Assembly (NCBI GenBank): GCA_947628585.1
Contig: CANRAL010000002.1
Coordinates: 1,343 to 65,342, forward strand
DNA: 64,000 nt
DNA from: an uncultured Bacilli bacterium
Lineage (GTDB): Bacteria > Bacillota_I > Bacilli_A > RF39 > UBA660
Reading direction: 5' to 3'
This document shows positions 2,473 to 51,313 of the stretch, one piece after another. Numbering within the stretch: position 1 is the first letter of the stretch; each line of letters opens with the position of its first letter. Below the pieces are notes generated by a model that saw only the letters and a list, made by a program, of their open reading frames with translations, ran no database searches and was not told the DNA's origin. Position numbers and translations under genes: made by a program.

Positions 2473-3249
2473 TTATTTTAAATCCGGCAAATCCATATCA
2501 ATATCATCATCCGATATTTTAATTTCTATTTTTGGCTTTATAATTTCTGGTTCTTCAATAGAATTAGTTATTTCTTCTTCGGCCATTGGATTAATTTCTT
2601 TTTTAAAATATGGTAAATATAAAGGCCGATGGAAAATAGTTGCTATTCTTCCTTGAGGCATTATTTTATCAAATATTTTAAGCTTTCTAATTAAACTTTT
2701 TAAAATGATAAATAAAGCTACACATAATAAGATTAATAACCATCCCGTAGCATTACTCATGAATACTTGAATTCTTCCTAAAGCAGGTATTTTTAAAGCT
2801 ACTTTACCAATTATTTGGTTAAAATTTACTCTACCTGAATCTTCAATCGGAGCCGCATCTCCTTTAGTTTGATAACTATAAGTTCCATCCGCACTTTTAA
2901 CTACAGAAACAACTCTATGGGTTATAGTCATCCCTTTGGTTTCATTACTTGAAGAAATAAAAGTAATAACATCGCCTATTTGAATATCTTCAGGTTTATC
3001 TACTTTTATATTTACAATAACATCATATACTTGAATATTAGGTGTCATACTAGGGCTCATAATTGAATATAAAGAAAATTTGGGTTCAAATTTTTCACCA
3101 AAAATTGAAAATAAGCGAGTAGAAACAAAATAATAAAGTAATAAGCTAGCACAAATCATAAGCAAAGTAAAAATAGTCCAACTAAAAATAGTTGAAATAA
3201 GCTTTAATATTTCTTTAAAATTTATTTTTTCAACTTTACTAGTATCCAC
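2473..3249 (-). CDS. Signal peptidase I, SipW/ER-archaeal type (S26B), with C-terminal TM segment and acidic tail
   Basis: Box B SPSMTP (Ser nucleophile), GDVITF, THRVV (His general base as in SipW-type enzymes) and KGDAAPIED (GDN box). An N-terminal TM precedes the catalytic domain. An extra C-terminal TM plus acidic extension is present. Confidence 0.75.
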   Translation of the reverse strand: MDTSKVEKINFKEILKLISTIFSWTIFTLLMICASLLLYYFVSTRLFSIFGEKFEPKFSLYSIMSPSMTPNIQVYDVIVNIKVDKPEDIQIGDVITFISSSNETKGMTITHRVVSVVKSADGTYSYQTKGDAAPIEDSGRVNFNQIIGKVALKIPALGRIQVFMSNATGWLLILLCVALFIILKSLIRKLKIFDKIMPQGRIATIFHRPLYLPYFKKEINPMAEEEITNSIEEPEIIKPKIEIKISDDDIDMDLPDLK

Positions 3250-3321
3250 TTACCTTACACTTCCCAATTATTATTATAACCAAACTTTAATAAAATAGCA
3301 ATGCCCAGAAAATGTTTTAAA

Positions 3322-3350
3322 CATCAAAAAAAGGAATAAATCCTTTTTAT
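3322..3350 (-). terminator. Hairpin plus T-run overlapping the tadC stop codon, between tadC and the SipW gene
   Basis: Minus-strand AAAAAGGATTTATTCCTTTTTTT. Confidence 0.4.
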
Positions 3351-4135
3351 AAATTCATTAATTTCAAAACGGCAAAAATCAAAAGTATCATTAGGCCTAA
3401 TCCCGTTGTAATTAACATACTCATGGTTTTACCTTCCATTTTTTCCAAACGATTCTTATATCTCGTTTCTCTGGCTTTTTGTTGTAAATTAGATATTGTT
3501 CTTGAGAATGTTAGTATTTGTTCTTGTTTTCTTTCTTGACGTCCTAAACTTAAACGATAAAGTAAACGCATCATTCTCATGGAATCTCGAACCGGATATT
3601 TTCGAGCAAATTCCATATAAGGTTCAATAGTATCATCCCCAGAATTTATTGATTCGATCATTTCTTTTAAACCATCTCTAAATATTTCTGGTGCTTCAGC
3701 CATGGATTTACCTATAGCAACGGGAACCGTATAGTGTTGAATTAAAATTTCTAAGTTTTTTAAATAATAAGGCAACATTGCATCAATTTCATGAATGTGT
3801 CGAGCATAATATTTTTTAATATCATTATAAGGCATTTTAAAAACAAAGAACCCGACAACAAATACCAATAATAACTTAACACTATTAAATCCATTTAAAA
3901 GCATAAAGAATACTAAAATCATAACTATTAAAGCATTTTTAATTCTTTTATTAAATAAAATATCGGCATTGGCATTATGTCCATATTTAGCTCGAACATA
4001 AAAATCCCAATCGCTTTCTTTCATTCGCATAAATAACATTTGGTTATCAATTATTAATTGATTAATATTTATTTGACCATTATTTGCCATTATTCCAAAG
4101 ATAATAAAGGCTAAAACTATTATTTCTATTTGCAT
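3347..4135 (-). CDS. TadC-like (T2SS-F family) polytopic membrane protein
   Basis: 262 aa with an N-terminal TM, a cytoplasmic domain and C-terminal TMs. It overlaps the preceding TadB-like gene by 1 nt. Position is directly after the CpaF ATPase and TadB, as in Tad loci. Confidence 0.55.
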   Translation of the reverse strand: MQIEIIVLAFIIFGIMANNGQININQLIIDNQMLFMRMKESDWDFYVRAKYGHNANADILFNKRIKNALIVMILVFFMLLNGFNSVKLLLVFVVGFFVFKMPYNDIKKYYARHIHEIDAMLPYYLKNLEILIQHYTVPVAIGKSMAEAPEIFRDGLKEMIESINSGDDTIEPYMEFARKYPVRDSMRMMRLLYRLSLGRQERKQEQILTFSRTISNLQQKARETRYKNRLEKMEGKTMSMLITTGLGLMILLIFAVLKLMNL

Positions 4136-5040
4136 TATTCTACCCCCACATCATCATTATAGTATTTTTCCCCAGATAATAGGAAAAAGGCATTTATAAC
4201 AACTATGGCATGTAAAATAATTTGAACATACCAAATATCTAATAGCGAAATGTAATTTTCTTCACCTAATAAAAATCTTAAAACAATTACTAATAAAAAT
4301 AACATTAAACCAAATTTAATAAATCGACCATGGAAGTTCTTCCGATCCATTTGGTCACGATAAACACCTTCTACTAGAGAGTCGATATCCATTGACATAT
4401 TTTCTAATGATTCACCGGCATCTTTAGCCCCTTCTTGCGTAATTTGTAAGAATAATTGATGCATATTTTTTACCATATAATATGGATATTTTTCATTAAA
4501 ATATTCTAAGGAAGCATTAATAGTACCATTTTGATAAGACATATCAATCATTTTTTTAACATCGCTTAATACTGGATCTTCTAAAATACCAGAATCGCGA
4601 ACACCTTCCAAAGATTTAACAAAACTTTGGGTAGTATTAAATTCCATTATTACGTTAGTAGTATAGGTTTGTATTTGTTCAAAAACATATTCACTATAAA
4701 TTCTTTGTAATCTCAAGAAAGCTAAATAAGGAATAAATGATATTGTTACAACCGAATAAATAATAGCAATAATTATACTATAAAAGTAAAAATAACCAAC
4801 AATAGCTGCGAAGCCACCCATTAAAACAATTTGAATTAAGTATTGCTTTGTCGTATATTCTTGACCTAATTCAATAGCCTTTTCCCGGACTATTTTAAAA
4901 GAAAAAGGAGCATAGCGATCATATACTTTTCCCACAGATGATAGGAAATAATTATAAACATTTTCGCCAGGATTACGACGATACAATACAATAAAAATAG
5001 CTATTGCCAGTAATATAATTAGTTCAAAATATGTATTCAT
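4135..5040 (-). CDS. TadB-like (T2SS-F family) polytopic membrane protein
   Basis: 301 aa. It has a TM-cytoplasmic-TM-TM topology consistent with T2SSF/TadB and lies immediately downstream of the secretion ATPase. Confidence 0.55.
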   Translation of the reverse strand: MNTYFELIILLAIAIFIVLYRRNPGENVYNYFLSSVGKVYDRYAPFSFKIVREKAIELGQEYTTKQYLIQIVLMGGFAAIVGYFYFYSIIIAIIYSVVTISFIPYLAFLRLQRIYSEYVFEQIQTYTTNVIMEFNTTQSFVKSLEGVRDSGILEDPVLSDVKKMIDMSYQNGTINASLEYFNEKYPYYMVKNMHQLFLQITQEGAKDAGESLENMSMDIDSLVEGVYRDQMDRKNFHGRFIKFGLMLFLLVIVLRFLLGEENYISLLDIWYVQIILHAIVVINAFFLLSGEKYYNDDVGVE

Positions 5041-5050
5041 TTTATCACCT

Positions 5051-6172
5051 TTATAAGCTTTCTATTGGAGTATTAAAAGCTTCACTATTACTATTTTCAT
5101 CTGTTCCTATATCATCATTATTAACAAAGTAATGAGGATTAAGTTCAACTCCTTGAACTCCTAAATATTCTAGTAAATATTTACTAGGATTATGAAAAGT
5201 AAATGTACCATCCAATCTCTTTTTAAATATTATATTAGAACAAGCTTCATTTTTATCATTTACATAAAATTCAACTACTTCAATAATTTCTCTTTGGAAA
5301 CGTCCTAATTCTTTACTCATATAACCTTTTACATGAACGCCAATTTGAACATAACGGTGAATAGAAGTTAAGAATTGTTCAATATCAATATTATTTTCTA
5401 GCAAACTATATAACCGCATAGGAATATTTAATGCTCTATCGGAGTGAATAGTAGAAATAATATTGTGCCCTGATGAAATAGAGTTTCTGACAGCCATTAC
5501 AGCTTCAGCACTACGAACTTCGGATAATAAAATCCATTTAGGGTTTTGCCGCATGCAAGTAACCAATACATCAGTATAAGATGCAATATTATTAGTTTTT
5601 ACGGCTACAATATCCCGATGAGGAAATATTTTATCTAAGTGCAATTCCAAAGTATCTTCAATAGTTATTATTTTTTCATTTTCTTTAGTATGGCTAGCTA
5701 AATATTTAACTAATTCAGTTTTCCCACTACCAGTTTCCCCACTTACAATAATATTGCAGTGTCCTTCAACACAAGTAAGCAAGAAATCATGTAAGTTTTC
5801 AGTTACATATTGTTCGGATAATAATTTTTCTTTATTTAATCTTATCTTCGCAGGTGTTTTTCTGATAGTACATGATATTCCATTAGTTGCAATGGAATCA
5901 TGAATAAAGTTAAGCCGTAATTCAGCTGACTCAGCATCCAAAAAAGGATGGGCCATATTAAAGGATTTTCCCATAACATTTGAACATTGAAAGGCAATTT
6001 TTTCCATTAATGCATTATTTATTTCCGGTCTTTCAATGCGATAAACCCCTTTATCAAGAGTTTTTAGATGAATTTGGCCATTGTTTGAATAAGATATATC
6101 GGTTATATTATCTGCCTCTAAAAACTCTTTTAAAGGGCCAAAATCTATTTGTGAAAATATTGCATCTGTCAC
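5051..6172 (-). CDS. CpaF/TadA-family secretion ATPase (VirB11/GspE superfamily)
   Basis: Walker A VSGETGSGKTE. Asp box IITIEDTLEL. Walker B-like KWILLSEVR. His box ISTIHS. Length is 373 aa. Confidence 0.85.
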   Translation of the reverse strand: MTDAIFSQIDFGPLKEFLEADNITDISYSNNGQIHLKTLDKGVYRIERPEINNALMEKIAFQCSNVMGKSFNMAHPFLDAESAELRLNFIHDSIATNGISCTIRKTPAKIRLNKEKLLSEQYVTENLHDFLLTCVEGHCNIIVSGETGSGKTELVKYLASHTKENEKIITIEDTLELHLDKIFPHRDIVAVKTNNIASYTDVLVTCMRQNPKWILLSEVRSAEAVMAVRNSISSGHNIISTIHSDRALNIPMRLYSLLENNIDIEQFLTSIHRYVQIGVHVKGYMSKELGRFQREIIEVVEFYVNDKNEACSNIIFKKRLDGTFTFHNPSKYLLEYLGVQGVELNPHYFVNNDDIGTDENSNSEAFNTPIESL

Positions 6173-6193
6173 AATTAGTCACCTCTTTAATTT

Positions 6194-6961
6194 CTAATAT
6201 GTAGCTTCTTCTGTTCTAGAATTAATATATTCTATTAATCTTTGACTACCTATAGTAGTTTCCCCTTCAAGTTCAGTATAATATCTTCCTCTTGGAACAG
6301 GGAATATTTCAACTCCACTTATATATTCGCTACTTTTTAATAAATGGAATATTTCATCAGTTACTCCAAATACTAAGAAAGCTGGAGTTCTAGTTGTACT
6401 AGCATCAAAAACATTTTGATTTTGATTATCTTTTACACCAATAACTTTTATACTACCAATTAATTTACCAACAACAATGGTTCCATTATCATTAGCTTTC
6501 ATATAAAGGTCAATATAATTACCTGGATAAATTGAATTACCAAAAGTAGTTCGATTAGTTACTGGTAATTGATAAGAAGTATATCCTTCAGGTAAGTCAC
6601 TAAACATTGAATCTGGTAATTCATCACTACTTACAACTTGATTATTATAAAATAACCCACCTTCAGGAATTGAAGTACCTACGTTAACAAAATTACCAAC
6701 AATTTTATTAACATCAGTTATAATATTAATATTTTTTAAAAAATCACGGCTAATTTCAATATATTCTATATCATCTTTAGTTATTTGCGTAGCAGCCGAT
6801 ATTGATTTAACTGCATAAGGAACTCTTACAGGATCGATAGCTTTATTAACGCGATAATTATATCCAACCCATAAGACTATAACTCCAGCGATTATTCCAA
6901 ATATTGTAACCGTATTTTTATTAGTAATAAATTTTTTAACAAAATTAATTATATTACCCAT
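6194..6961 (-). CDS. CpaB/RcpC-like Flp pilus assembly protein (N-terminal TM plus SAF-like domain)
   Basis: A single N-terminal TM is followed by the VRVPYAVKSISAATQITKDDI SAF-like segment. The C-terminal TPAFLVFGVTDEIFHLLK resembles the CpaB C-domain. Confidence 0.55.
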   Translation of the reverse strand: MGNIINFVKKFITNKNTVTIFGIIAGVIVLWVGYNYRVNKAIDPVRVPYAVKSISAATQITKDDIEYIEISRDFLKNINIITDVNKIVGNFVNVGTSIPEGGLFYNNQVVSSDELPDSMFSDLPEGYTSYQLPVTNRTTFGNSIYPGNYIDLYMKANDNGTIVVGKLIGSIKVIGVKDNQNQNVFDASTTRTPAFLVFGVTDEIFHLLKSSEYISGVEIFPVPRGRYYTELEGETTIGSQRLIEYINSRTEEATY

Positions 6962-6977
6962 TTTTATCCTCCTTTAT

Positions 6978-8789
6978 TTAAATAGCACTCCAGAAGTTTG
7001 CACCAACACCACCAGTTGCTTTTTTCAAACGATTATAACAATTAGTATCTTGGAAGTGCCACCATTCACTTGCTAAATAATCTAGTCCAGCTCCGGTCAT
7101 ATATTTCATTAGCTTTTCGGCATCACTACCACTCCAACCTTTTATCCGAGTTGTTTTACTTTGACTAGTAAAGACGGCAGCTTTATTACTTAACTCATGC
7201 ATAGCTGATGGCATATTACCACCTTCAAGTGTAATATCAACAGCACAACCAACATTGTGAGTTGATAGAGAAGATGCTAAGAACCATCCTTGACCCCAAC
7301 CATCCATACCTTTAAGAACAGCAGGTTTATTCACAATTGTTGAAAATTGTCTACTACCAGCTAAAGTAACACTTCTTGGCCGATAAGCATCCATAACTAC
7401 TAAAGTATCTCCGCCTCTCGCGGCATTTCTTGCAGCAGTTTTAAGTTCTTTAGCAAAACCATATATTACAGGAACAAAATCCCGATATACAGATGAATAT
7501 AATTGTCTACCAGTTATACCTGGAATATCATAACCACTAGATTTATAAATAGCACTATAAGCATTTTTAATATCAGTTTTTATTTCTGGGGCATAGTCTA
7601 CTAAACTAATAGCCATATTATTAGCCTTAATCCAGCCACATTTTCCAGTTTCTTCAATTTTAATAGCCCAATACTCAATATTAGTATACGTAGATACCCT
7701 TGAACCTAAAATAGTAAATATTTTCCCAGCAGATAATTTACCACTTTCGTTTTCACCAGAGAATACTCGATACAAGGTTTCTTTAACCATTGGTGTACCA
7801 CGCATACCTGCAAGTGATGTATCAGCAATAAAATCAGGGTCTTCCAAACAAGAATCATTATTAGCAACAACCCGAACGGTATTTTCTACTTCATTAGATT
7901 TATTACCATCAACATCAATAGCATAAGCTCTTAATTTATGTTCACCAGAGCTTACATTCTTAAATGTATATGAATTAGAATCACTTTCTACCCAAGTAGC
8001 TCCATCATCTTCACTAAAATAATATTTTTTAATTTTCTTTTCACTAGTAACTACAACTTCAGCAGTTACATTATTATTACTATTATCTTTAACATTTAAT
8101 TTATTTGCTTCTATACCAGAATTCGATTCTGTTCCAGTAGATCCACTACCTGTATTTGATGAGCCACTGCCAGAACCAGTTCCAGTTGAACTATTTCCAG
8201 AACCCGTTCCTGTTCCGGTTCCAGTTCCAGTTCCTGATGAACTTCCACTTCCAGTGCCGGTTGAGCTATTTCCAGAACCAGTTGATCCACTGCCAGAACC
8301 GGTTCCAGTACTAGAAGAACTACTACCAGAACCACTGCCTGTACTTGATGAGCCACTACCAGTGTTTTTACCTGCGTTTGGTCCTAAAACACTTCCTTCG
8401 ATTATAGCATCGATTCTATTTACAATATCAAATTCCGTAGAATCTCCAACTACACTAAATGTTCCTGACTTTCCACTTATTTCAACACTAGCTTTAGGTG
8501 GGGCTTCATAAACATCATAAAAGCTTATTTCATATGAATTAGTCAATTGGGCATTTTCAGCAAATCTTCTTATAAATATTTCATAAAATTTTTCTTTATT
8601 CATTTTTATTTCGCCATATTGACGATAATATGCGAAGTCAACAGCATCTACCATTGCAGCTTCGGTTAATTCTTTAATTAAGAAATAATCTTGTTGGTTA
8701 TTAGTAGTTACACTTTGAACTAATAACATAATAACCACAATAAATACCCCTAATAAAATTAGCCAATATGTCCAAAAAGCATTTTTCAC
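6978..8789 (-). CDS. Membrane-anchored multidomain cell-wall hydrolase: Gly/Ser/Thr linker, Ig/Fn3-like domain, SH3b-like domain, C-terminal VanY/M15-family D,D- (or L,D-) peptidase
   Basis: N-terminal signal anchor. ~100 aa (GSGSST)n low-complexity linker. GWIKANNMA SH3b-like motif. LAS/M15 signatures STHNVGCAVD (H-x6-D) and SEWWHF (E-x-x-H). Confidence 0.65.
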   Translation of the reverse strand: MKNAFWTYWLILLGVFIVVIMLLVQSVTTNNQQDYFLIKELTEAAMVDAVDFAYYRQYGEIKMNKEKFYEIFIRRFAENAQLTNSYEISFYDVYEAPPKASVEISGKSGTFSVVGDSTEFDIVNRIDAIIEGSVLGPNAGKNTGSGSSSTGSGSGSSSSSTGTGSGSGSTGSGNSSTGTGSGSSSGTGTGTGTGTGSGNSSTGTGSGSGSSNTGSGSTGTESNSGIEANKLNVKDNSNNNVTAEVVVTSEKKIKKYYFSEDDGATWVESDSNSYTFKNVSSGEHKLRAYAIDVDGNKSNEVENTVRVVANNDSCLEDPDFIADTSLAGMRGTPMVKETLYRVFSGENESGKLSAGKIFTILGSRVSTYTNIEYWAIKIEETGKCGWIKANNMAISLVDYAPEIKTDIKNAYSAIYKSSGYDIPGITGRQLYSSVYRDFVPVIYGFAKELKTAARNAARGGDTLVVMDAYRPRSVTLAGSRQFSTIVNKPAVLKGMDGWGQGWFLASSLSTHNVGCAVDITLEGGNMPSAMHELSNKAAVFTSQSKTTRIKGWSGSDAEKLMKYMTGAGLDYLASEWWHFQDTNCYNRLKKATGGVGANFWSAI

Positions 8790-8807
8790 CTAAAAGTCAC
8801 TCCCTTT

Positions 8808-11800
8808 CTATTTCCAAGCAGGACCACCAACAATAGATTCATTATATGTATATCCATCCCATGGTGTCCAATATCCACTATTTACTACACTTTCTGGTGT
8901 TCTACTTCCTGAATCTCCTGCTCCTCTATTCTTTATGTATACTTTATCTCCGTAATTATTTACTAAGTCATCTATAAAACTACTATAACAGAATACATCT
9001 TTATATACGGCATTATTTGGTGCTTCATAGTCATAACATGTTAAGGTATTATTTCCATATCCACCAACTTGCTCTTTATTATAATCTCTTATATGTTGGA
9101 TCATATCTGAACTTAATTGAATACTAAATTCTAATTTTGAATCTGGATCATCTTTATCATCATTATATATTGTTGTATTACTTTCTTCTATTTCTTTTAT
9201 TGTTTCTTCAGCTTTATCTCTTACTAATGATAATTCTGATAATGTTGTATTTACATTCCAGTTATATCCATATTCTCTTCCGGCTGATTCTGTAAATCCT
9301 CCTGATGTTGTTACTGATTTAAAGTTCAATTGTAATTTATCTAAGTTAAAGATACAGTTTACACATTCTATATCACATGTTGGGCAAGGTACCCATTCGC
9401 AATATTCTCCTTCACACACGAAGTCACATTGTGGACACATATTATCATCTGGTATACATGTTGTATAGTAATGACATACATATTCACCATTCCATGTATC
9501 AGTTCCATTTACACCTTTGGCATTGGCAACACTTCTTTGTTCATTTTCACCGCCAAAGTCGATTAATCTACCTAAATCTCCTGAATCATAGAATTCACCT
9601 AAATCTTCAATTTTTAATCTAAAGATTCCACCTCCATTTGCATCTGATGACAATGGTAATCCATGTCCTGATCCATCTGGTTCTCCTACAGGTACTACTT
9701 GTAGATTTGGTCCACTATAATTTTGATTTGTTACATGACCACTCATTGGTCCACTTGATACTATTTGATAAAATACTGTTGGTGTTAAATATTCTTGAGT
9801 TGTTTCTTCAAATTTTTGTTTAGCAAATTTAGCTTTTGATACATCTTTTTCATCTTTTTTACATCCTTCAGTTGAACAAATTGTATGAGATCTTTTTTCT
9901 AATAATGATTCTGGACTTGTCCATCCTGAACTACATTCTTCGTACTTATTATCTACGTCTTCTTCACAAGCCATCAATGTTCCTTCAGGTCTTGTTGTTC
10001 CACTTATCATTTCTAGATATTTAGCATCATCTGATACTAATTTCATATATTCTTCAATATCATATTCCCATGCTATTTTATCTTCAAACTTAAATTCACT
10101 TTCCCATTCTGTTGAACATGAATTAAAGTTTTCAATTGTATTTTCATATCTTGTTTGTAGCTTTTCAAGTGCTTCTGAAGCTTTTGATAAATCATTTTCT
10201 ATTTGACTTGTTACATCACTTTCATTTTCTCCAGTATATTTAAATTTATGTGTTTCTCCCTCGTCAGTAACTTCTCCTGTTTTTTTATTAGTAGTTCCTA
10301 CTTTTCTACCAGCATAATTTCCTTCTACATACCAATAATCTGTTTCTTCATGATAGCCTATAATAGTCCCTGTTTCTTCATCAATATCTTGTATTTTTTT
10401 CTTATGTTCTTGTATTGTATTTCCTTGAGCTACTTTTGCTTTAGTATATAAATCATACATATCAATAAAGTTTGTTTGAATTTCAATTATGTCTTCTAAA
10501 TATTTATCTACATCTATTTGTTTTCCTTTAGTTGTTCCTTTACCACGATAGCAGTCCATACTACCAGTTACTTTAGCTTTTAATTTAAAGTATCCACCAC
10601 AATTTAATTTGTCTATAGCTTTATTTAAGACTATTTCCCGATAATCTTCTTTACAGAAAGTATCACAATAATCATTGCTTATGCCTCCGAGACTTTCATC
10701 TAACTTATATGTATTTCCAGCATCATCAACATTTTCAATAATACATTTCTTTATATCTTCAGGAGCTATTACTGAGCCAACTCCATCATCTTCTTCACTA
10801 CATATTGGTGTAGTTAGTGTTGTATCACAAGCTACTCCTAAACATTCAATAGGCATTATATATTGTAAAGTTTTATCTTGTTTATTTGATTCAGAAGTAA
10901 CATAATCATTAGGAATTACACCTACATATCTTTGTGTACCTTCTGAAATTTGATCATCAAATAAAGCAATAGATATATCTTTAGTTTCTGGTACTAAATA
11001 ATTAACCGTTATATTTCCACATGTTTCAGATTCAGTCATTTCTTTGTGAATAGTAATTTTTATTTTTACATTTCCATCTTCATCTGCAAAGTTAGAAATA
11101 TCAATTCTTTCACCAAGTTCTTTCCACTCACCATTTTCTTGATATTCAACTTTTTCTATTGTTATGCCATTTTCAGCACAATTATTACAAACTATATCAC
11201 TTCTGCCTACTTTAACATATCCATCTTTATTTTTAGTTATCTTAAAATTTACTATTTTTTCTTCAGTATTTCTATCTATTTTCACACTATTAGATGTTAC
11301 ATTAACTTCTGTATCATCATCTATTCCACCTTTATTAAAAAATTCGTATGCCGCATCTATTCCCTTTTGAATTAAATTTTTGGCTTTAGTAACCGTACTT
11401 TTTCCACCAGTAATAGCATAATTTTTACTAGGTTTTTTTATAGATACGCCTAAGGCAGATATTTTATCTTTATTATTTATTGCCATTCCATATCCTAAAT
11501 TCATAACTGCATATTTAGCTTGAACCCTACTTACATCGTCAGATTCATAATTTTTGTCGTCTAATCCCATTATTTCATTAAAATAAGCCCGTACAGCTAA
11601 ATCGGTAGCAGTTATATCACTGGTATTTGATGTAGTTGATTTAGCACCATTTTCTAAAATTGTATATAAGCCATAATATAAAGCTCTAGTTTCAAGTGAT
11701 GTTCCAGCATTGCCAAAATCAAAAATTTGTTTAACCTTTACTGTACTATTTCTAGCATTATTTAAATCTACTGGATCTACGCAATATAATTTAACTTGTT

Positions 11801-11996
11801 TTGAATTAGCTGTCGCGTAATAATTCCAAACATGATATGGCCAATTTCCTCCTTTTATTCCTAAACTGCTTGCAGCATCACCATTCCAATTAAATGTATA
11901 CTTATCACCAACATTAAATGCTTTAACACTACTATTATTAATTAAAAACATAAATAATATTAAAGACATTAAGAATAATTTTTTTAAATTTTTCAT
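8808..11996 (-). CDS. Giant secreted cysteine-rich protein (1062 aa), putative surface/adhesin-like cargo of the Tad-like locus
   Basis: Signal peptide (cleavage after ...NNSSVKA). Multiple Cys clusters (CNNCAENG; CPQCDFVCEGEYCEWVPCPTCDIECVNC). The gene start overlaps the upstream gene stop (ATGA), indicating operon coupling. Confidence 0.6.
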   Translation of the reverse strand: MKNLKKLFLMSLILFMFLINNSSVKAFNVGDKYTFNWNGDAASSLGIKGGNWPYHVWNYYATANSKQVKLYCVDPVDLNNARNSTVKVKQIFDFGNAGTSLETRALYYGLYTILENGAKSTTSNTSDITATDLAVRAYFNEIMGLDDKNYESDDVSRVQAKYAVMNLGYGMAINNKDKISALGVSIKKPSKNYAITGGKSTVTKAKNLIQKGIDAAYEFFNKGGIDDDTEVNVTSNSVKIDRNTEEKIVNFKITKNKDGYVKVGRSDIVCNNCAENGITIEKVEYQENGEWKELGERIDISNFADEDGNVKIKITIHKEMTESETCGNITVNYLVPETKDISIALFDDQISEGTQRYVGVIPNDYVTSESNKQDKTLQYIMPIECLGVACDTTLTTPICSEEDDGVGSVIAPEDIKKCIIENVDDAGNTYKLDESLGGISNDYCDTFCKEDYREIVLNKAIDKLNCGGYFKLKAKVTGSMDCYRGKGTTKGKQIDVDKYLEDIIEIQTNFIDMYDLYTKAKVAQGNTIQEHKKKIQDIDEETGTIIGYHEETDYWYVEGNYAGRKVGTTNKKTGEVTDEGETHKFKYTGENESDVTSQIENDLSKASEALEKLQTRYENTIENFNSCSTEWESEFKFEDKIAWEYDIEEYMKLVSDDAKYLEMISGTTRPEGTLMACEEDVDNKYEECSSGWTSPESLLEKRSHTICSTEGCKKDEKDVSKAKFAKQKFEETTQEYLTPTVFYQIVSSGPMSGHVTNQNYSGPNLQVVPVGEPDGSGHGLPLSSDANGGGIFRLKIEDLGEFYDSGDLGRLIDFGGENEQRSVANAKGVNGTDTWNGEYVCHYYTTCIPDDNMCPQCDFVCEGEYCEWVPCPTCDIECVNCIFNLDKLQLNFKSVTTSGGFTESAGREYGYNWNVNTTLSELSLVRDKAEETIKEIEESNTTIYNDDKDDPDSKLEFSIQLSSDMIQHIRDYNKEQVGGYGNNTLTCYDYEAPNNAVYKDVFCYSSFIDDLVNNYGDKVYIKNRGAGDSGSRTPESVVNSGYWTPWDGYTYNESIVGGPAWK

Positions 11997-12748
11997 ATTT
12001 CACTGCTCCTTTGTTTTTTTACAATCACAGCTACGACAACCCCACTTATAGTAATTAGCAAAATACTTCCGCCAATAACATAATATTTATTTTCTGATAT
12101 AAAATTTTTAAAACTATCCCAAAAATTATCATTTTCTACATTGCTGGTTTGATTATTTTCTTTGCTAGTTATATATTGTTTTATCCTATCCATAAAAGTG
12201 CCTAAATCAATTTCATTATAAGTAACAAACTTTTGACATAAACTAAATTCAGGAATATCTGTACATAGTTCATAATTATAATATTCGTTTAATCTAGGAA
12301 CTTTTAATGTAATAGTTCGCATTAATTCACCAGGGCATCCAGTATTATCACTAGTATAAACCTTAATTGTAAAATTTGTAACACTCTCAAGATTATACCA
12401 AGGAAACATAATTATATTATCCTTATCAGTAATATCATATCTATTTTTAGTTTTATCATTATCATTAGAAACTTCTAAATAAAATTTATCAGAAAGATTA
12501 GTAATAGATATATTAAAATACGTTCTTGTTGGAGGGATAAAATCAGCATTTTCATCTTCACCATCAGGAAAACCATATATACTTGGATCCAATTCTTCTT
12601 CCGCTTCCTCATATGTGCCACGCATATTAGATACTAAATTTCTTAATTCTGCTTGTTCACTTGTAGAACAAACACTTGCTGCACTAATATTTGTTATAAA
12701 TACCACACTAAATAAGAAAGAAATAAACATTTTTGTTATTCTTTGCAT
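11993..12748 (-). CDS. Secreted protein with N-terminal signal peptide and C-terminal TM anchor (251 aa), first gene of the operon
   Basis: Signal peptide MQRITKMFISFLFSVVFITNISAAS. C-terminal hydrophobic segment followed by KKQRSSEI. No homology recognised. Confidence 0.5.
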   Translation of the reverse strand: MQRITKMFISFLFSVVFITNISAASVCSTSEQAELRNLVSNMRGTYEEAEEELDPSIYGFPDGEDENADFIPPTRTYFNISITNLSDKFYLEVSNDNDKTKNRYDITDKDNIIMFPWYNLESVTNFTIKVYTSDNTGCPGELMRTITLKVPRLNEYYNYELCTDIPEFSLCQKFVTYNEIDLGTFMDRIKQYITSKENNQTSNVENDNFWDSFKNFISENKYYVIGGSILLITISGVVVAVIVKKQRSSEI

Positions 12749-13017: not shown

Positions 13018-13671
13018 ATGAAATTTTTAAAATATATTAATTATTTTAAAGGACTTCTTATCTATTTATTTTTAAATGTATTTAGCATATATTTTTTTAG
13101 TTTTTTATATCCTAATCATAAATATATTTTTAATATAATTAATTTAAGTATTCCTTTTTTAACTTGTTTTATTCTATTAATAGTTTATCGAAACTTATTT
13201 AATAATAAATTTAAAGATTATAAAAATAATTTTGCAAAATATTTTAATATAATGTTTAGATATTGGTTTGTTGGAGTAATATTAATGATTGTCTTAAATA
13301 CTTTAATAAATGCTTTAACTGGAAATATTGCTATAAACGAAGAAAATAATAGAACATTATTTAGTAGTTTACCTCTTTATTCTATAATATCTACAATTAT
13401 TCTTGCTCCTATAAGTGAAGAACTAGCATTTAGAGCTTCTTTTAAAGGAATTTCTAAAAATAAATATATTTATTCATTTATAACAGCCTTTATATTTGGT
13501 TTATTACATGTCATATTTAATGGTGATTTTCTATATATAGTTCCTTATTCTGCTTTAGGTTACTTTATTGCTTTAAGTTATTCCGAAACTGATAATATCT
13601 TAGTTCCTATTTCGATGCATGCTTTTCATAATACTTTATGTATTCTTCTTTTAATAGGAGGAAACCTATGA
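13018..13671 (+). CDS. CPBP-family (CAAX/Abi) intramembrane metalloprotease
   Basis: EELAFR motif (APISEELAFRASF), FGLLH and HAFHN motifs, multiple TMs. Confidence 0.8.
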   Translation: MKFLKYINYFKGLLIYLFLNVFSIYFFSFLYPNHKYIFNIINLSIPFLTCFILLIVYRNLFNNKFKDYKNNFAKYFNIMFRYWFVGVILMIVLNTLINALTGNIAINEENNRTLFSSLPLYSIISTIILAPISEELAFRASFKGISKNKYIYSFITAFIFGLLHVIFNGDFLYIVPYSALGYFIALSYSETDNILVPISMHAFHNTLCILLLIGGNL

Positions 13672-14483
13672 AAAAATATTTTTTTATTTTTATTATATTA
13701 ATAGCAGCCTTATTTTTATATGGTAGGTATATAGAACCTCATACTATTAAAATTAAAGAATATACTATATCTAATAGTAATATTCCTGAATCTTTCAATG
13801 GTTTAAAAATAATTCATTTTTCCGATTTATTATATAAAGAAGATACTACGGAAGATGATTTAAAAAAAATAGTTGCCAAAATTAATCAATATAAACCTGA
13901 TGTTATTTTTTTTACTGGTGATTTAATATATCAAAATTATCAAATAAGTGAAGATGATAAAAATTTATTAATTAAATATTTAAATAAAATGGATTGTTCG
14001 TTATATAAATATGCTGTTATAGGAGATAACGATGAAATTAATGATAATCAATATTATGATATTTTAGATAAAAGTAATTTTAAGTTATTAAATAATAATA
14101 AAGAATATTTATTTTATAAAGATATTAATCCTATTAAAATAATTGGTTTAACAAATACAATGAATATTTCTGAATTATTAATTGAGGAAGAAAACATTAC
14201 TCCAATATATACTATTGTTTTAACTCATGAACCTGGAAATATAAATGAATTAAAAGATTATAATTTTGATTTGATTTTAGCGGGTCATTATCTGGGAGGA
14301 ATTATTAATATTCCTTTCTATGGTGCTTTAATAAAAAAAGATCATACAGATAATTATTTAAACAATTATTATAAAATAAACAATACAGAAGTTTATATAT
14401 CTAATGGCATAGGAACTGAATATTTTTCTTTTAGATTATTTAATAAACCTTCTATAAATTTTTATCGATTAAATAAAAATTAA
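13638..14483 (+). CDS. Calcineurin-like metallophosphoesterase (YkuE-like), membrane-anchored
   Basis: N-terminal TM. IIHFSDLLY, GDL and GHYLGG phosphoesterase motifs. Confidence 0.75.
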   Translation: MYSSFNRRKPMKKYFFIFIILIAALFLYGRYIEPHTIKIKEYTISNSNIPESFNGLKIIHFSDLLYKEDTTEDDLKKIVAKINQYKPDVIFFTGDLIYQNYQISEDDKNLLIKYLNKMDCSLYKYAVIGDNDEINDNQYYDILDKSNFKLLNNNKEYLFYKDINPIKIIGLTNTMNISELLIEEENITPIYTIVLTHEPGNINELKDYNFDLILAGHYLGGIINIPFYGALIKKDHTDNYLNNYYKINNTEVYISNGIGTEYFSFRLFNKPSINFYRLNKN

Positions 14484-14508
14484 ACAGCTACTTCAATAGT
14501 AACTGTTT

Positions 14509-15417
14509 TTAAATTTCTTTTTGTAACTCATTTATGGTTTTTAATGATAAACCGGTTATTTCTTGAATATCACTATTTTTATATTTTCTAGTTAACATTC
14601 TTTTGGCTAGCTCTTTCTTTTCTTCACTTCGGCCTTCTTTTAGGCCTACTTCTCTACCTTTATCTATAGCTATCTCTTCAGCCCATTTACCATAAAATTC
14701 TTTGGTTTGTTCATCATTTACATATTTTTCTAACCATTCATTTAAACTCATTAAATATTCATCTCCTTCTGAGGCTCTTTTTCTTTCTTCATAACCTCTT
14801 GCTTTTAAATAGTTTAACCATCTTACCTTTTGTTCACTTTTAGTATACTTCCTTGCCTCTTCTATGTCAAGTCGATATATTTTTATCTTAAAGTTTTCTT
14901 TTAATATCGTATAGCTTAAATCATCTTCATTTATTATCTTATATATACTTTCTATCTTTTTAGGTATTCTTGTTTCTACTTTATCTACTATATTTATTTG
15001 AATTAATTGTTTTAATTTATTATATTTCTTATATCCTGCTTTATTTGATGTTGAAAATATCCTCATAGCATAATTTATTGATTTATTTAAACTTGCTAAA
15101 TTAAATATTTTATAACATTCTAAATTTATTAAATAATCTTCAAATACTATTAATACATCACTTCGATATTTTTTATCTTGATATTTACTTTTCCGTAACT
15201 CACTTTCGTAATTTACTTCCATTTTTATTTTCTTTAAATATTCCATATCAAGATCTAAAAAACAAGATAGAAAATACTTTAATATATTTCGATTATCCGG
15301 ATGCGTTAAAGCTTCTTTAAATAAAGTATCATCCATTAAAGTAAGATTTTTTACTTCTTCCTTAGTTACCATTTTTTCACCTTCTTTCTTTTTAAAAATA
15401 ATCCTACTATAGCACAC
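14509..15417 (-). CDS. Rpn-family recombination-promoting nuclease / putative transposase (PD-(D/E)XK, TIGR01784-like)
   Basis: N-terminal LMDDTLFKEALTHPDNRNILKYFLSCFLDL and C-terminal KEGRSEEKKELAKRMLTRKY repeats, typical of the YhgA/Rpn family. Confidence 0.65.
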   Translation of the reverse strand: MCYSRIIFKKKEGEKMVTKEEVKNLTLMDDTLFKEALTHPDNRNILKYFLSCFLDLDMEYLKKIKMEVNYESELRKSKYQDKKYRSDVLIVFEDYLINLECYKIFNLASLNKSINYAMRIFSTSNKAGYKKYNKLKQLIQINIVDKVETRIPKKIESIYKIINEDDLSYTILKENFKIKIYRLDIEEARKYTKSEQKVRWLNYLKARGYEERKRASEGDEYLMSLNEWLEKYVNDEQTKEFYGKWAEEIAIDKGREVGLKEGRSEEKKELAKRMLTRKYKNSDIQEITGLSLKTINELQKEI

Positions 15418-15486
15418 AAATATAGAAATATTTGTCGAATACGGGCGAACACTTTAATTTTTTTTAACATAAAAAAAACTTCTTTT

Positions 15487-15774
15487 TTAGAGAAGTTCTA
15501 TAAGACGAAAATTAGAATTTAATTTTGCTATTAAAGAATCTTTTTCGTATTTATCTAGCATATCTTTAAAGTTACTATGATCCATGAAAAATAAATCTGG
15601 ATAATTAATAAATATTTGAACATAAGTAGTAATACCTAAATCTTTTAAATACGCTAAATTCTTTTCCACTAATTTTTGGCTTTGTTTAATTTCATTCATT
15701 ATTTTTTTAGGAGTATTGTCAATTAACTTATCAATATCATCTTTAGTAAAATCATATTTTTCTAAAAATTTCAT
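15487..15774 (-). CDS. Hypothetical protein (95 aa)
   Basis: ORF in an operon-like array with the two upstream genes. No recognised motif. Confidence 0.4.
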   Translation of the reverse strand: MKFLEKYDFTKDDIDKLIDNTPKKIMNEIKQSQKLVEKNLAYLKDLGITTYVQIFINYPDLFFMDHSNFKDMLDKYEKDSLIAKLNSNFRLIELL

Positions 15775-16529
15775 TATGCCGCCCCTCTCATTCTACCAAC
15801 GCCATTATCCATAGTTTCATTAAGTTCTAAAACTTTATCAATTTCTGTACTTAATAGTTCAACATTTCCCACTTGAAATGCATCATTAAAGACTGCGAGT
15901 AAAATTTCTTTTTCACTTAAAGCAGATAAATCAACTTTTTCTAAAGCTTTTCGAACTGCTTCTTTATCTTCATCAGCTGTTAAAGTGAAAGTTTCTAATA
16001 ATTTATTACAAAGATTTAATATTCTTTCTTTTTTATTATTTTCTTCTTCATTAGGATTAGCTTCAAAATTCATAAAGCTTACTTCTTTAGGTTCTTCTTT
16101 AACTGTTTCGGTTTCTTTTTGTTTTTCAATTAAAGGTCGAACATTTTTTTCATATTCTTCTTTATCAAAGATAAAATCAGCACATAGATTAGTTTCTTCA
16201 TCTCGATATGGAATATGCATCGCATCACATTCCGCCATTCTTCTAATTATTTCCGCGGTATCAGGATTAGTTAATCTTCTAGGTTTATGCCGCATATCTT
16301 GGATAAAGTTCATTTGTTCAGTTAATTCTACATAATGTTTTAATTCACGAGGTACTATTGTATAAATTATAAAACAACTTGGACTAGTTGGATAAATATC
16401 ATGTTCTTCCAAAAGTTTAAAATTTTCTTCTTCCCCATTAATTAAAGAATAACTAAATTTTTCAATTTGCGCTTTATTCTTTTCTGACATTTTTCGAGTA
16501 GCAATTTCAACTTTTTCTTTTAACTCCAT
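15774..16529 (-). CDS. Hypothetical acidic protein (251 aa)
   Basis: ORF overlaps the downstream gene by 1 nt. No recognised motif. Confidence 0.4.
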   Translation of the reverse strand: MELKEKVEIATRKMSEKNKAQIEKFSYSLINGEEENFKLLEEHDIYPTSPSCFIIYTIVPRELKHYVELTEQMNFIQDMRHKPRRLTNPDTAEIIRRMAECDAMHIPYRDEETNLCADFIFDKEEYEKNVRPLIEKQKETETVKEEPKEVSFMNFEANPNEEENNKKERILNLCNKLLETFTLTADEDKEAVRKALEKVDLSALSEKEILLAVFNDAFQVGNVELLSTEIDKVLELNETMDNGVGRMRGAA

Positions 16530-16545
16530 TCTTTATTTCTCCTTT

Positions 16546-17664
16546 CTAATATGCCATTAAAGGAACCTTTTTAGGATCTAAACCACTTACTTGTAAAACA
16601 TTTATAGTATTAGTTAATCCATTTAAATCATATTTAACTAATATACTTGGCATCAAACATATATCTTCTACTTCTTTACCAATTGCTAATAACTTATCTA
16701 ATTTTTCTTGTAATTCAGAATCATATAATATTTCATAATTTTCTAATAAAATATCTAAATCCATATTTTTACTTTTTAATATTTCAACATTTTTCTTTAG
16801 TAAATTTTCATCATAATTTTCTAATATTTTTGTAAATGCTTTAGTCGAAAATTTATCAGCATTTAAACCAATTCCAGCCATTAAGTTTTCAAGTTTTCCT
16901 TTTGCTGATTCAGCACTATCTTCAGATATCATTTCGACATTTTCAATAGTTAATTTTTCTTCTTTTGGAGCAATATTTAATGGTTCTTCTTTAATAAAAT
17001 CTAATGGTTCTTTTATTTCAACTTCTTTACCATTTAATTTATTATCATATTCAAATAAAGCATCTTCAGGGAACATTAATAACTTCGCCGTTTCTCTTTG
17101 TTCTTCAGGAGTAAAATCAAATTTTTCAAGTAAAGAAACTATTTCATCACGAGTTATATTTATATTTCCATTTAAGGCTAAATTTATATATTCATTTAAT
17201 TTACTTTGATTACTTAAAGCTTCATCTTTTCTAATGCCTAACTCTTCAACCATAGTTATAGCATTATTCATTTCTTTTTCAACATTATCTAATTTTTCTT
17301 TAGCACTTTCATTTTCTCGAACTACTTTTTCAATCGTTTCTGGTAATAATTTATTTACTTTAGCATTAATATTAGCTGGTTCAAAATCTATTTTTAATGC
17401 TTCAAGAACAAAAGCAAAATCATCACGATTAATGTTACTTAAAACATCCATTAATTTATTACCTTGTTCTGCCAAAATTGCTTCTTCATTTGTTAAACGA
17501 TCTATTTCTTTTAATAATACTTCTTTTTCATTCTTCGTTCTTTCTTGAGTTTCAATAGCATTTTGTCTTTCTTTATTCATTTGTTTTAAAATCACACTAT
17601 CTTCACCACGAAGATTATAAAGCTTATCTAATAAACCTTTTACTTCATTTGTAATCATTTTCAT
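16546..17664 (-). CDS. Hypothetical coiled-coil protein (372 aa)
   Basis: Long heptad-rich N-terminal half. No recognised catalytic motif. Confidence 0.4.
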   Translation of the reverse strand: MKMITNEVKGLLDKLYNLRGEDSVILKQMNKERQNAIETQERTKNEKEVLLKEIDRLTNEEAILAEQGNKLMDVLSNINRDDFAFVLEALKIDFEPANINAKVNKLLPETIEKVVRENESAKEKLDNVEKEMNNAITMVEELGIRKDEALSNQSKLNEYINLALNGNINITRDEIVSLLEKFDFTPEEQRETAKLLMFPEDALFEYDNKLNGKEVEIKEPLDFIKEEPLNIAPKEEKLTIENVEMISEDSAESAKGKLENLMAGIGLNADKFSTKAFTKILENYDENLLKKNVEILKSKNMDLDILLENYEILYDSELQEKLDKLLAIGKEVEDICLMPSILVKYDLNGLTNTINVLQVSGLDPKKVPLMAY

Positions 17665-17783
17665 TTAATCACGCCCTTTATTATATTTAAATTATAACAA
17701 AAAGGTAAAAAAATGTAAATAGATAATGAAGTTTTTCACTAAAAATATGATTTTGAATATACTACCCTAGAGGAGGAATTGTT

Positions 17784-18776
17784 TTGAAAAAAAGAATATT
17801 ATTATTCATTTTTACTTTAATTATTTTAGGATTAATTATTTTGGGAGTTAGTTTATCAGGAAAAAAAGCTAATAAAGACTTAATAAACATTCGAGTTGCC
17901 GAAGTAACCCATAGTTCCTTTTATACTCCCCTTTATGTTGCTTTAGAAAAAGGTTATTTTAAAGATGAAGGTTTAAATGTGGAATTAATCTTAACCCCAG
18001 GAGCTGATAAAGTAAGTGCTGCCGTATTATCTAATGATGTTGAAATAGGTTTCGCCGGAGCAGAATCAGCAATTTATGTTTATAATGCTCAAGAAAAAGA
18101 TTATTTACAAATATTTTCGGGCTTAACCAAAAGAGATGGTCAATTCATAGTTTCTCGAAAACCAAATACCAATTTTCAATTAAAAGATTTATATGGTAAG
18201 GAAATTCTTGTTGGTCGCAGTACAGGAATGCCAGCATTGAACTTTTTAAACGCTTTAAAAAACAATAATATCGATATAGAAAAAATTAATGCTAATTATT
18301 CGGTAGAATTTGCAGCTTTATCAGGATCTTTTATTGGAGGTGTTGGCGACTTTGTTAATCTATTTGAACCTAACGCTACCGCTTTAGAAAAAGAAGGTTA
18401 TGGTTATGTTGTCGCATCAGTTGGTGAACTATCGGGAGAAGTTCCCTATACAACTTTTTATGCTCGAAAAAGTTATATAAATAATAATAGTGAAATTATT
18501 GAAAAATTTACTAGAGCTATCGCTAAAGCACTAAATTATACTCTTAATAATGATAGCAAAACTTTAGCAAATGATATCATTAATCAATTTCCAGATACCG
18601 ATTCTAATGATTTAGCTACTATGATAGATCGCTATAAAAAATATGATACTTGGTTAGAAAATCCTTTTGTTGATGAAAAATTATTTACTAATTTAGAAGA
18701 TTTCTTAATAGATTTTGATTTAATAGATGAATATGTCCCATTTAATGACTTAGTTCATAATTTTTACCATGACTAA
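17784..18776 (+). CDS. ABC transporter substrate-binding lipoprotein, NMT1/THI5-SsuA-like (NitT/TauT family)
   Basis: Signal/anchor N-terminus. Periplasmic-binding-protein type 2 fold hallmarks. Followed by ATPase and permease genes. Confidence 0.75.
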   Translation: MKKRILLFIFTLIILGLIILGVSLSGKKANKDLINIRVAEVTHSSFYTPLYVALEKGYFKDEGLNVELILTPGADKVSAAVLSNDVEIGFAGAESAIYVYNAQEKDYLQIFSGLTKRDGQFIVSRKPNTNFQLKDLYGKEILVGRSTGMPALNFLNALKNNNIDIEKINANYSVEFAALSGSFIGGVGDFVNLFEPNATALEKEGYGYVVASVGELSGEVPYTTFYARKSYINNNSEIIEKFTRAIAKALNYTLNNDSKTLANDIINQFPDTDSNDLATMIDRYKKYDTWLENPFVDEKLFTNLEDFLIDFDLIDEYVPFNDLVHNFYHD

Positions 18777-33929: not shown

Positions 33930-34060
33930 TAAAAAAACACCCAAGATAACCTTGAGTATTAAAGTTATCTTATAGATCTAGCATTACCACCTAATTTAAT
34001 AGGTTGGTGCGACTTCATAGGGCTAGTCCCTCCATCGCTCTTTATAAGATGTTGAAATAA
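33930..34060 (-). promoter_or_regulatory. SAM-I (S-box) riboswitch with terminator expression platform
   Basis: Minus strand reads CTTATAAAGAGCGATGGAGGGACTAGCCCTATGAAGTCGCACCAACC...GGTGGTAATGCTAGATC. A terminator GATAAC...GTTATCTTGGGTGTTTTTTT follows. Confidence 0.8.
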
Positions 34061-51155: not shown

Positions 51156-51246
51156 ACAAATACATAATATCATAAAAACGACTTTTTTACAAGTCGTTCT
51201 CCTATTTCTACTCAAAAGTCCGAGTTTGGTATCATTCTGGTGCTGG
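51156..51246. repeat. Direct repeat copy 2 (includes the tRNA terminator hairpin and the tRNA 3' end)
   Basis: See copy 1. Contains AACGACTT-TTTTAC-AAGTCGTT hairpin. Confidence 0.6.
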
Positions 51247-51313
51247 AAGTGGGACTCGAACCTACGACCTACGCGTTACGAGGGCGTTGCTCTACCAACT
51301 GAGCTATTCCAGC
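51238..51313 (-). tRNA. tRNA-Thr (anticodon CGU), CCA encoded
   Basis: Minus strand reads GCTGGAATAGCTCAGTTGGTAGAGCAACGCCCTCGTAACGCGTAGGTCGTAGGTTCGAGTCCCACTTCCAGCACCA. Cloverleaf has a 7-bp acceptor stem, a GTTGGTA D-loop, a CTCGTAA anticodon loop and a TTCGAGT T-loop. Confidence 0.7.

Follow-up and report, generated by a model that had tools for sequence, protein, structure and literature searches.

The Tad (type IVc) pili described from monoderms such as Bifidobacterium breve (tad), and from Caulobacter (Cpa), share a CpaF-type ATPase, two half-size T2SSF paralogues, and the SAF-domain protein CpaB. Operons that combine CpaF, PilC/GspF, DUF5411, and internalin-like genes have been noted in Roseburia, Ruminococcus, and Eubacterium by Miller et al. 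(2022) as an uncharacterised secretion-related system (PMC9523054). On the Bacillus subtilis plasmid pLS20, genes 34-40 encode Tie, p35, p36 (a weak DUF5411 match), the ATPase p37, two membrane proteins (p38 and p39), and p40, which weakly matches DUF4320; in the plasmid's annotation p37 is a putative VirB11 and p36 and p38-p40 are of unknown function (PMC8557374). Tie is a thioester-domain (TED) adhesin needed for efficient conjugation (PMC8092201). Here, we analyzed a 64-kb stretch of DNA from an uncultured Bacilli bacterium (referred to as the window herein), in which seven genes at 3347-12748 probably constitute the core operon of a divergent Tad-like envelope machine of the type IVc filament family, inherited vertically in uncultured low-GC gut Bacilli.

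Like the Tad loci, this operon encodes CpaB, the ATPase, TadB, and TadC in that order, and in relatives it is followed by pilin-like genes, some small and some larger, and by a ParA-like candidate. Unlike the Tad loci, the window has no Flp pilin with the G/XXXXEY motif, no A24 peptidase, and no TadZ, and its platform proteins are too divergent for the Pfam T2SSF model. The core also adds DUF5411, a machine-tethered M15 peptidase, a 251-residue anchored protein, and a giant TED-like protein, none of which occurs in described Tad loci. All eight open reading frames (ORFs) that a preliminary description, made from the letters alone, had reported at 2473-12748 are present on the minus strand where it had placed them, and a protein collection holds exact entries for all eight translations (from a 73-kb contig). 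The features of the locus are as follows, in the direction of transcription.

11993-12748, minus strand: 251-residue protein, first gene of the operon (ORF; weak Ig-like Pfam match)
8808-11996, minus strand: 1062-residue giant protein, secreted and Cys-rich (ORF; Cys72 motif of its orthologues)
6978-8789, minus strand: 603-residue fusion protein with DUF5411, linker, Ig-like, SH3b-like, and M15 parts (Pfam/NCBIfam)
6194-6961, minus strand: 255-residue CpaB/RcpC-like SAF-domain protein with an N-terminal transmembrane (TM) helix (hidden Markov model [HMM] and family profile)
5051-6172, minus strand: 373-residue CpaF/TadA-type secretion ATPase (PF00437)
4135-5040, minus strand: 301-residue TadB-like platform protein with a T2SSF fold (profile and model)
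3347-4135, minus strand: 262-residue TadC-like platform protein, last gene of the operon (profile comparison)
3325-3348, minus strand: terminator-like hairpin AAAAAGGA-TTTAT-TCCTTTTT with a T-run, immediately behind the stop codon of the 262-residue gene
3273-3301, minus strand: sigma-70-type promoter TTGCTA-17-TATAAT before SipW (10/12 match)
2473-3249, minus strand: 258-residue SipW/archaeal-type signal peptidase I (TIGR02228)

The 373-residue ATPase matches the T2SSE family (PF00437) with E = 2.8e-29 and carries a Walker A motif (GETGSGKT), a Walker B-like motif (ILLSEVR), and a His box (TIHS). Its nearest solved structures are those of CpaF (8rkd, E = 1.3e-18; 8rkd and 9e24 both at about 1e-18), followed by FlaI and then VirB11, and we place it in the CpaF/TadA clade of secretion ATPases. 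For the 255-residue CpaB-like protein, single-sequence HMM searches gave matches below cut-off to TIGR03177 (27.5 bits versus a cut-off of 71, E = 1.6e-6) and to RcpC (E = 1e-3). Its family profile, on the other hand, aligned in hhalign with a SAF-domain (SAF plus RcpC) protein encoded on a Priestia plasmid (99.65%, E = 4.6e-25), which identifies it as a CpaB/RcpC SAF-domain protein. To follow the genes through the lineage, we compiled a presence matrix of 81 homologous loci, 60 of which have enough upstream sequence for the first part of the core and 68 of which are assessable for what lies downstream of it. A CpaB-like gene is found in all 60 of the former, in one to three copies and often in two or three.

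The two platform proteins were harder to place, as neither the 301- nor the 262-residue protein matched a Pfam or NCBIfam model in single-sequence searches. Profiles built from close orthologues found no PDB sequence and no similarity between the two, and ten full-length remote homologues from a representative search likewise had no T2SSF match. The 301-residue family nonetheless aligned at profile level with the T2SSF protein of the Priestia plasmid (98.6%, E = 1.4e-15), and the 262-residue family with that plasmid's second membrane protein (hhalign, 96.7%). When enriched profiles were compared with each other, the two families aligned over 242 co-linear columns (96%, E = 4e-9), which shows the 262-residue protein to be a distant paralogue of the 301-residue protein, as TadC is to TadB. 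An AlphaFold model of the 301-residue protein made with remote homologues in the alignment was confident, with a predicted local distance difference test (pLDDT) score of 83.3, and superseded a run on a shallow alignment (75-90% identity) that gave a pLDDT of 52.7. This protein has a single cytoplasmic domain of T2SSF fold between TM helices. By fold and profile, the locus encodes two paralogous single-domain T2SSF platform proteins. Thus, the TadB/TadC assignment of the preliminary description, for which HMM matches are absent, was recovered at fold and profile level, and with it the inner-membrane core of CpaF-like ATPase, two T2SSF-fold paralogues, and SAF/CpaB protein. Of its domain assignments, HMMs confirmed those of the ATPase, the SipW type, and the M15 domain, supported that of CpaB weakly, and gave no direct match for TadB and TadC. 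Taken together, these analyses establish the identity and conservation of the motor, platform, and SAF proteins and support a Tad-like core that is too divergent for curated models.

The N-terminus of the 603-residue protein consists of a TM helix and a DUF5411 domain (8394-8789; Pfam E = 8e-54), which the preliminary description had not recognized. There follow a Gly/Ser-rich linker, an Ig-like domain of the Y_Y_Y/OmpL47 type (about 7869-8033; Y_Y_Y, 4.5e-5), an SH3b-like region and, in the C-terminal part, a VanX-type M15 peptidase (7044-7520; PF01427, 41.2 bits versus a cut-off of 27, 2e-10). Both zinc-binding motifs of the latter, H-x6-D and E-x-x-H, are intact (STHNVGCAVD and SEWWHF), in agreement with the peptidoglycan peptidase originally proposed. 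The window also encodes a PBP5-type carboxypeptidase, from which we conclude that the organism makes peptidoglycan. Most relatives encode DUF5411 separately, as a protein of about 140 residues, and have M15 fused to a pilin-like N-domain; the DUF5411-M15 fusion is found in the window and in two related loci (L005 and L062 in our numbering), of which L062 keeps the pilin module as well. Since M15 is always joined to a TM-anchored, machine-associated N-terminal module, a role in local trimming of the wall is favored. The locus of one close relative, L004, contains no M15 domain, which implies that the peptidase is not indispensable there. The same locus carries two identical stand-alone DUF5411 genes in tandem (L004:8181-9142), either through genuine duplication or through an error of assembly. 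An hhalign comparison of DUF5411 with the pilin-like families was not significant, and that DUF5411 acts as a pseudopilin is a guess on our part.

Upstream of these genes lie those for two secreted proteins. The 251-residue protein starts with a signal peptide (..NISA|AS) and is anchored by a TM segment with a basic tail at its C-terminus; the extracytoplasmic part contains an Ig-like domain whose Cys residues are conserved. A homologue occupies the equivalent position in 59 of the 60 loci, and the family evolves fast, at 23-46% identity. Both this protein and the 1062-residue giant protein have signal peptides of the AXA type. Of the three classical signal peptides initially assigned to the operon, these two hold; the 603-residue protein begins with a TM helix and DUF5411. 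The giant protein comprises an N-terminal thioester-domain-like region with the motif YCVD (Cys72), a central coiled-coil-like region, and a Cys-rich C-terminal region that ends in ..IVGGPAWK. Cys72 is invariant in all 51 giant-protein orthologues, where it lies within [YF]C[ILM]DP, and the Asp that follows it is present in 49 of them. The TED motif defined with Tie of pLS20 is [YFL]C-hydrophobic-hydrophilic (PMC8092201), and the giant protein carries a Cys motif of this type near its N-terminus, after the signal peptide. The Pfam TED model (PF08341) weakly matched nine of the 51 orthologues at E <= 0.01, the best at 1.6e-5, and a PDB profile search with the N-terminus of the giant protein returned nothing. 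Members of the family contain 19-86 Cys per protein and are without LPXTG or TM anchor. About 50 of 68 giant proteins, including that of the window (8808-8840), end in [IV]GGP[AS]WK, a possible tag for docking or processing; in a divergent clade, the last residues are ..WP, ..LP, or ..CP instead. At two loci (L046 and L054), a second pair of 251-like and giant genes lies upstream of the main operon, so that the adhesin pair is duplicated. Among relatives, the 251-residue and giant proteins share 22-48% identity versus 55-94% for the motor proteins, the pattern expected for exposed surface parts on a conserved machine.

We found relatives of the ATPase in at least 567 species-level genomes, 80 of which have 72-94% identity to it. 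The relatives are metagenome-assembled genomes of uncultured gut Bacilli labeled Bacilli, Tenericutes, or Erysipelotrichaceae, including Clostridium sp. CAG:609, Candidatus Onthocola, and Candidatus Ventrenecus, and the hosts of the system-bearing lineage are humans, rabbits, ruminants, chickens, and mice. The order of the seven-gene core (251-like, giant, DUF5411, one to three CpaB, ATPase, 301, 262) is kept, with its genes present in 58-60 of the 60 loci. Its chromosomal site is fixed as well; in 43 loci, the core adjoins a divergently transcribed metallophosphoesterase gene.

In 48 of the 68 assessable loci, the core is followed by a second module. It encodes two small Cys-rich pilin-like proteins of about 75-100 residues with a near-invariant N-terminus MKEATGELNMTVV... 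(L001:12960-13475), a pilin-like N-domain fused to SH3b and M15, a paralogue of that N-domain (together the N-domain families g155 and g507), a 330-residue candidate TadZ (g329) without family support, and two proteins with two TM helices and a weak match to T4SS_pilin. The small Cys-rich pair begins almost invariantly with MKEATGELNMTVVTVVAIAA in these 48 loci, and a start of the form M-[KR]-E-[AS] recurs in DUF5411 and in the N-domain families g155 and g507. This start resembles an N-terminal signal common to these proteins, but it does not contain the G/XXXXEY motif of Flp. We found no A24 peptidase gene near the small pilin-like genes, and a crude motif test for the A24-like GxGD[VIL]K detected no ORF in the window or in the 81 related loci. 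The second module is missing from the window and its two closest relatives (L004 and L005). The lack of Flp pilin, A24 peptidase, TadZ, and TadE/F genes noted in the preliminary description holds within the 64-kb window, whereas its view that the operon's other proteins stand in place of a pilin module does not, because the same core precedes pilin-like genes in most relatives. The absence of the pilin-like module from the window is a derived, truncated arrangement.

Outside this lineage, a tblastn search of plasmids with the ATPase gave as best matches the pLS20-family 'VirB11' p37 (34% identity) and a locus on the Priestia koreensis plasmid NZ_CP061869. The latter encodes, in order, an Ig-like protein of 993 residues, DUF5411, SAF, a ParA-like protein, a CpaF/VirB11 ATPase, T2SSF, a 279-residue protein, and DUF4320. 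It is co-linear with the window, with which it has DUF5411 and the three profile matches reported above in common, but it keeps ParA-like and DUF4320 genes that the window lacks. The Clostridia operons share CpaF, PilC/GspF, and DUF5411 with the window (PMC9523054). Neither the Priestia nor the Clostridia loci have the M15 fusion or the 251-residue protein, and both have been annotated by homology or classifier alone. Our literature search returned no paper mentioning DUF4320 and no experimental work on this operon family. The preliminary description did not recognize the architecture as a described system; this was too strong, since the Clostridia operons had been flagged (PMC9523054) and the same module is present in pLS20 genes 34-40 (PMC8557374, PMC8092201). 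What is new here is the DUF5411 domain of the 603-residue protein, the TED-type motif and GGPAWK end of the giant protein, and the match of the module with the Priestia plasmid and with pLS20 34-40.

The likeness to pLS20 raises the question of whether the module is itself a device for conjugation or mating-pair formation, or a descendant of one, with a role in cell contact for DNA transfer rather than in adhesion to a host or substrate. Both loci have, in the same order, a TED adhesin, a DUF5411-like protein, a T2SSE ATPase, and two membrane proteins of about 245-270 residues (PMC8557374); Tie sits at the position equivalent to the giant protein, its motif being YCID where the window has YCVD, and efficient conjugation depends on it (PMC8092201). 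The closeness of the plasmid ATPases and the weak T4SS_pilin-like genes with two TM helices in relatives point the same way. However, the pLS20 module is plasmid-borne and lies within a type IV secretion operon with VirB4, VirD4, VirB6, and VirB8, and it is without CpaB and M15, whereas the core described here sits at a fixed chromosomal site beside housekeeping genes in dozens of species. We found no VirB4, VirD4, relaxase, or VirB6/VirB8 among the operon proteins, the flanks, and the ten larger window ORFs scanned. Moreover, of the solved structures, those of CpaF and FlaI are nearer to the ATPase than that of VirB11, the similarity of p38 and p39 to the window's membrane proteins is not significant at profile level, and the giant protein is larger than Tie, Cys-rich, without recognizable CnaB domains, and ends in GGPAWK. 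We consider a conjugative role quite unlikely.

A second alternative concerns the SipW gene. In the Bacillus subtilis tapA-sipW-tasA operon, the gene for a signal peptidase I of the ER/archaeal type, extended at its C-terminus, likewise adjoins genes for secreted surface proteins, and the preliminary description had envisaged a dedicated secretion or fiber system whose Tad-type motor exports a large cargo matured specifically by the co-encoded SipW, as TasA/TapA are in Bacillus. The enzyme itself is intact: it matches TIGR02228 (SipW/archaeal type) with 87.9 bits versus a cut-off of 51.85 and the SipW equivalog with 75.5 bits, below the cut-off of 190, carries the Ser and His motifs as SPSM and THRV, has a TM helix and an acidic tail at its C-terminus, and belongs to the S26B (ER/archaeal) type. 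It is encoded co-directionally and directly downstream of the core, an adjacency kept in the two closest species, and the AXA-type signal peptides of the 251- and 1062-residue proteins need a signal peptidase I. The gene is nonetheless a separate transcription unit. The seven core genes overlap or are at most 21 bp apart, while SipW begins 97 bp downstream of the 262-residue gene, behind a hairpin with a T-run and a promoter of its own, so that the proposed operon of eight genes comprises only seven. A hairpin and T-run follow the stop codon of the 262-residue gene at all three loci that bear SipW, with a hairpin sequence that differs between species, and both promoter hexamers (TTGCTA and TATAAT) are invariant among the three. 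A generic terminator scan did not call the hairpin, whose stem is GC-poor.

The distribution of SipW leads to the same conclusion. It adjoins the core at three of 81 loci, those of the window and its two closest species. Orthologues of SipW (47-59% identity) are common in the lineage, where they lie far from any Tad-like gene in 3/3 long contigs examined; one of these reads SipW-SDF-pheS-pheT, which ties the gene to the pheS side, and in the window the T-box leader of pheS is directly downstream of SipW. No TasA/TapA/camelysin-type domain was found in any operon protein. A cargo matured specifically by SipW is, in our judgment, very unlikely, and we reject a functional wiring of SipW into the system. 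SipW would instead be a housekeeping-type signal peptidase that may, at most, cut the two classical signal peptides as any other would. The gene that follows SipW is pheS in the window and uvrA in L004, and in L001 uvrA comes after the full module; most simply, the downstream module was lost in a deletion or rearrangement that also placed the separately transcribed SipW beside the core.

Such a loss could also mean that the clade of the window holds a decaying remnant, in which the disappearance of the pilin, TadZ, and minor-pilin module inactivated the system and pseudogenization is under way. The missing module, the apparent in-place deletion in L004, where SipW replaces the module and the flanking uvrA is kept, and the lack of an M15 domain at that locus would all fit. 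Arguing against decay, all seven ORFs are intact in three species, and neither the ATPase nor M15 has lost its catalytic motifs. Within the clade, the ATPase has 91-94% identity and the platform proteins 84-89%, versus 52-61% for neighboring genes, which indicates strong purifying selection. The short layout is furthermore common to 20 loci from several clades and therefore appears stable rather than transient. In one short-layout clade (L038, L040, and L048), four conserved genes of about 378, 499, 365, and 428 residues follow the core at about 13300-18400, the place taken by the pilin-like module in other genomes. We regard decay as the least probable of the explanations weighed. Lastly, a SpoIIIA-like sporulation channel was rejected because it has a different set of genes, in which CpaB, DUF5411, and the adhesin would be out of place.

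For the Tad-like envelope machine that we favor, several results weigh on the other side. The T2SSF model of Pfam fails directly on both platform proteins, the Priestia T2SSF protein that bridges to the family itself scores 24.2 bits versus a cut-off of 25.2, and the TadC-like assignment of the 262-residue protein comes from profile comparisons. No Flp-type prepilin with a class III signal peptide (G/XXXXEY) is present among locus ORFs of at least 20 residues, and the operon proteins include no match to an A24 prepilin peptidase. The relatives' small pilin-like proteins (MKEATGELN...) are without the G/XXXXEY motif and without Pfam support, and HMMs of the module families (small pilin-like, g329, g155, and the g507 N-domain) had no match in the window. 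The absence of pilins, TadZ, and pseudopilins covers ORFs down to 20-30 residues across the whole window, which leaves a filament hypothetical for this genome. On the adhesin side, the giant protein of the window has no Pfam match, TED model included, and the first 320 residues of its orthologues contain no column with the conserved Gln partner. Finally, we infer the function of the machine from homology and genomic context.

Despite these points, the parts can be assembled into a working model of the Tad-like machine. By homology and fold, a hexameric CpaF-type ATPase drives a platform of the two paralogous single-domain T2SSF proteins. SAF/CpaB and the TM-anchored DUF5411 proteins may extend this machine on the outer face of the membrane. 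The M15 peptidase, of the D-Ala-D-Ala type and tethered here through DUF5411, would trim the peptidoglycan around the structure and so let it pass through the wall. The Sec-exported 251-residue anchored protein and the giant TED-like protein would be the fast-evolving surface parts, the giant protein being in all likelihood an adhesin, presented by the machine or driven across the wall by it, comparable to Tie in pLS20. In most relatives, the small pilin-like proteins encoded just downstream could build a short filament, while the clade of the window would either encode its pilins at another place in the genome or make do with DUF5411.

A bolder version of this model, which we regard as speculative and unlikely, is a Tad-derived monoderm machine that needs no prepilin peptidase. 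Its subunits, DUF5411 among them, would be leaderless M-[KR]-E-[AS] proteins that drive a giant, non-LPXTG, TED-like adhesin through the peptidoglycan, the adhesin being recognized by its GGPAWK end, with the fused peptidase opening the wall, and in the clade of the window DUF5411-M15 would be the sole pilin-like piston. If true, such a sole-piston machine would be a Gram-positive counterpart of the type II secretion pseudopilus and not a pilus.

Other features of the window surround the locus. Divergent from the operon, an Rce1-like CPBP intramembrane protease (13018-13671, plus strand; PF02517, 2e-15) adjoins the metallophosphoesterase gene. The protease neighbors the core in 22 related loci. 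As a candidate substitute for the prepilin peptidase we rejected it, since it is a neighbor in only those 22 loci and absent from full loci of the L001 type. A transposase-like gene of the PD-(D/E)XK nuclease family (PDDEXK_2, 3e-13; 14509-15417, minus strand) splits genes that are adjacent in L001. At 19278-22601 (minus strand) is a gene for a 1107-residue protein without a signal peptide or a Pfam match at 1e-5, with no apparent relation to the operon. Two large serine recombinases (Resolvase plus Recombinase plus Zn_ribbon_recom) are encoded about 12 kb apart at 26138-27754 and 38354-39949, both on the plus strand; they may be part of an integrated mobile element or prophage, or mark its borders. 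An Rfam scan of the window found a SAM riboswitch and a tRNA gene at 33967-34050 and 51241-51313, respectively, both on the minus strand. Elsewhere in the lineage, an ORF at L075:17431-17970 that starts ..GEIYLGVVGAVRTGKSTFIKK appears to resemble the N-terminus of SpoIVA, and at least some members may sporulate.

The motor of this system is among the most conserved proteins of its neighborhood, and the uncultured gut Bacilli with small genomes that carry it number at least several hundred species. Its combination with a fast-evolving giant adhesin-like protein and a tethered wall peptidase points to the way in which these organisms attach to a host, to food particles, or to other cells. From the likeness to pLS20 34-40 comes the hypothesis, in a genetically tractable Bacillus system, that the genes beside Tie form a Tad-like module. 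Lastly, a Tad-like core that persists under strong selection without adjacent pilin genes bears on what constitutes a minimal functional machine of the type IV filament family.

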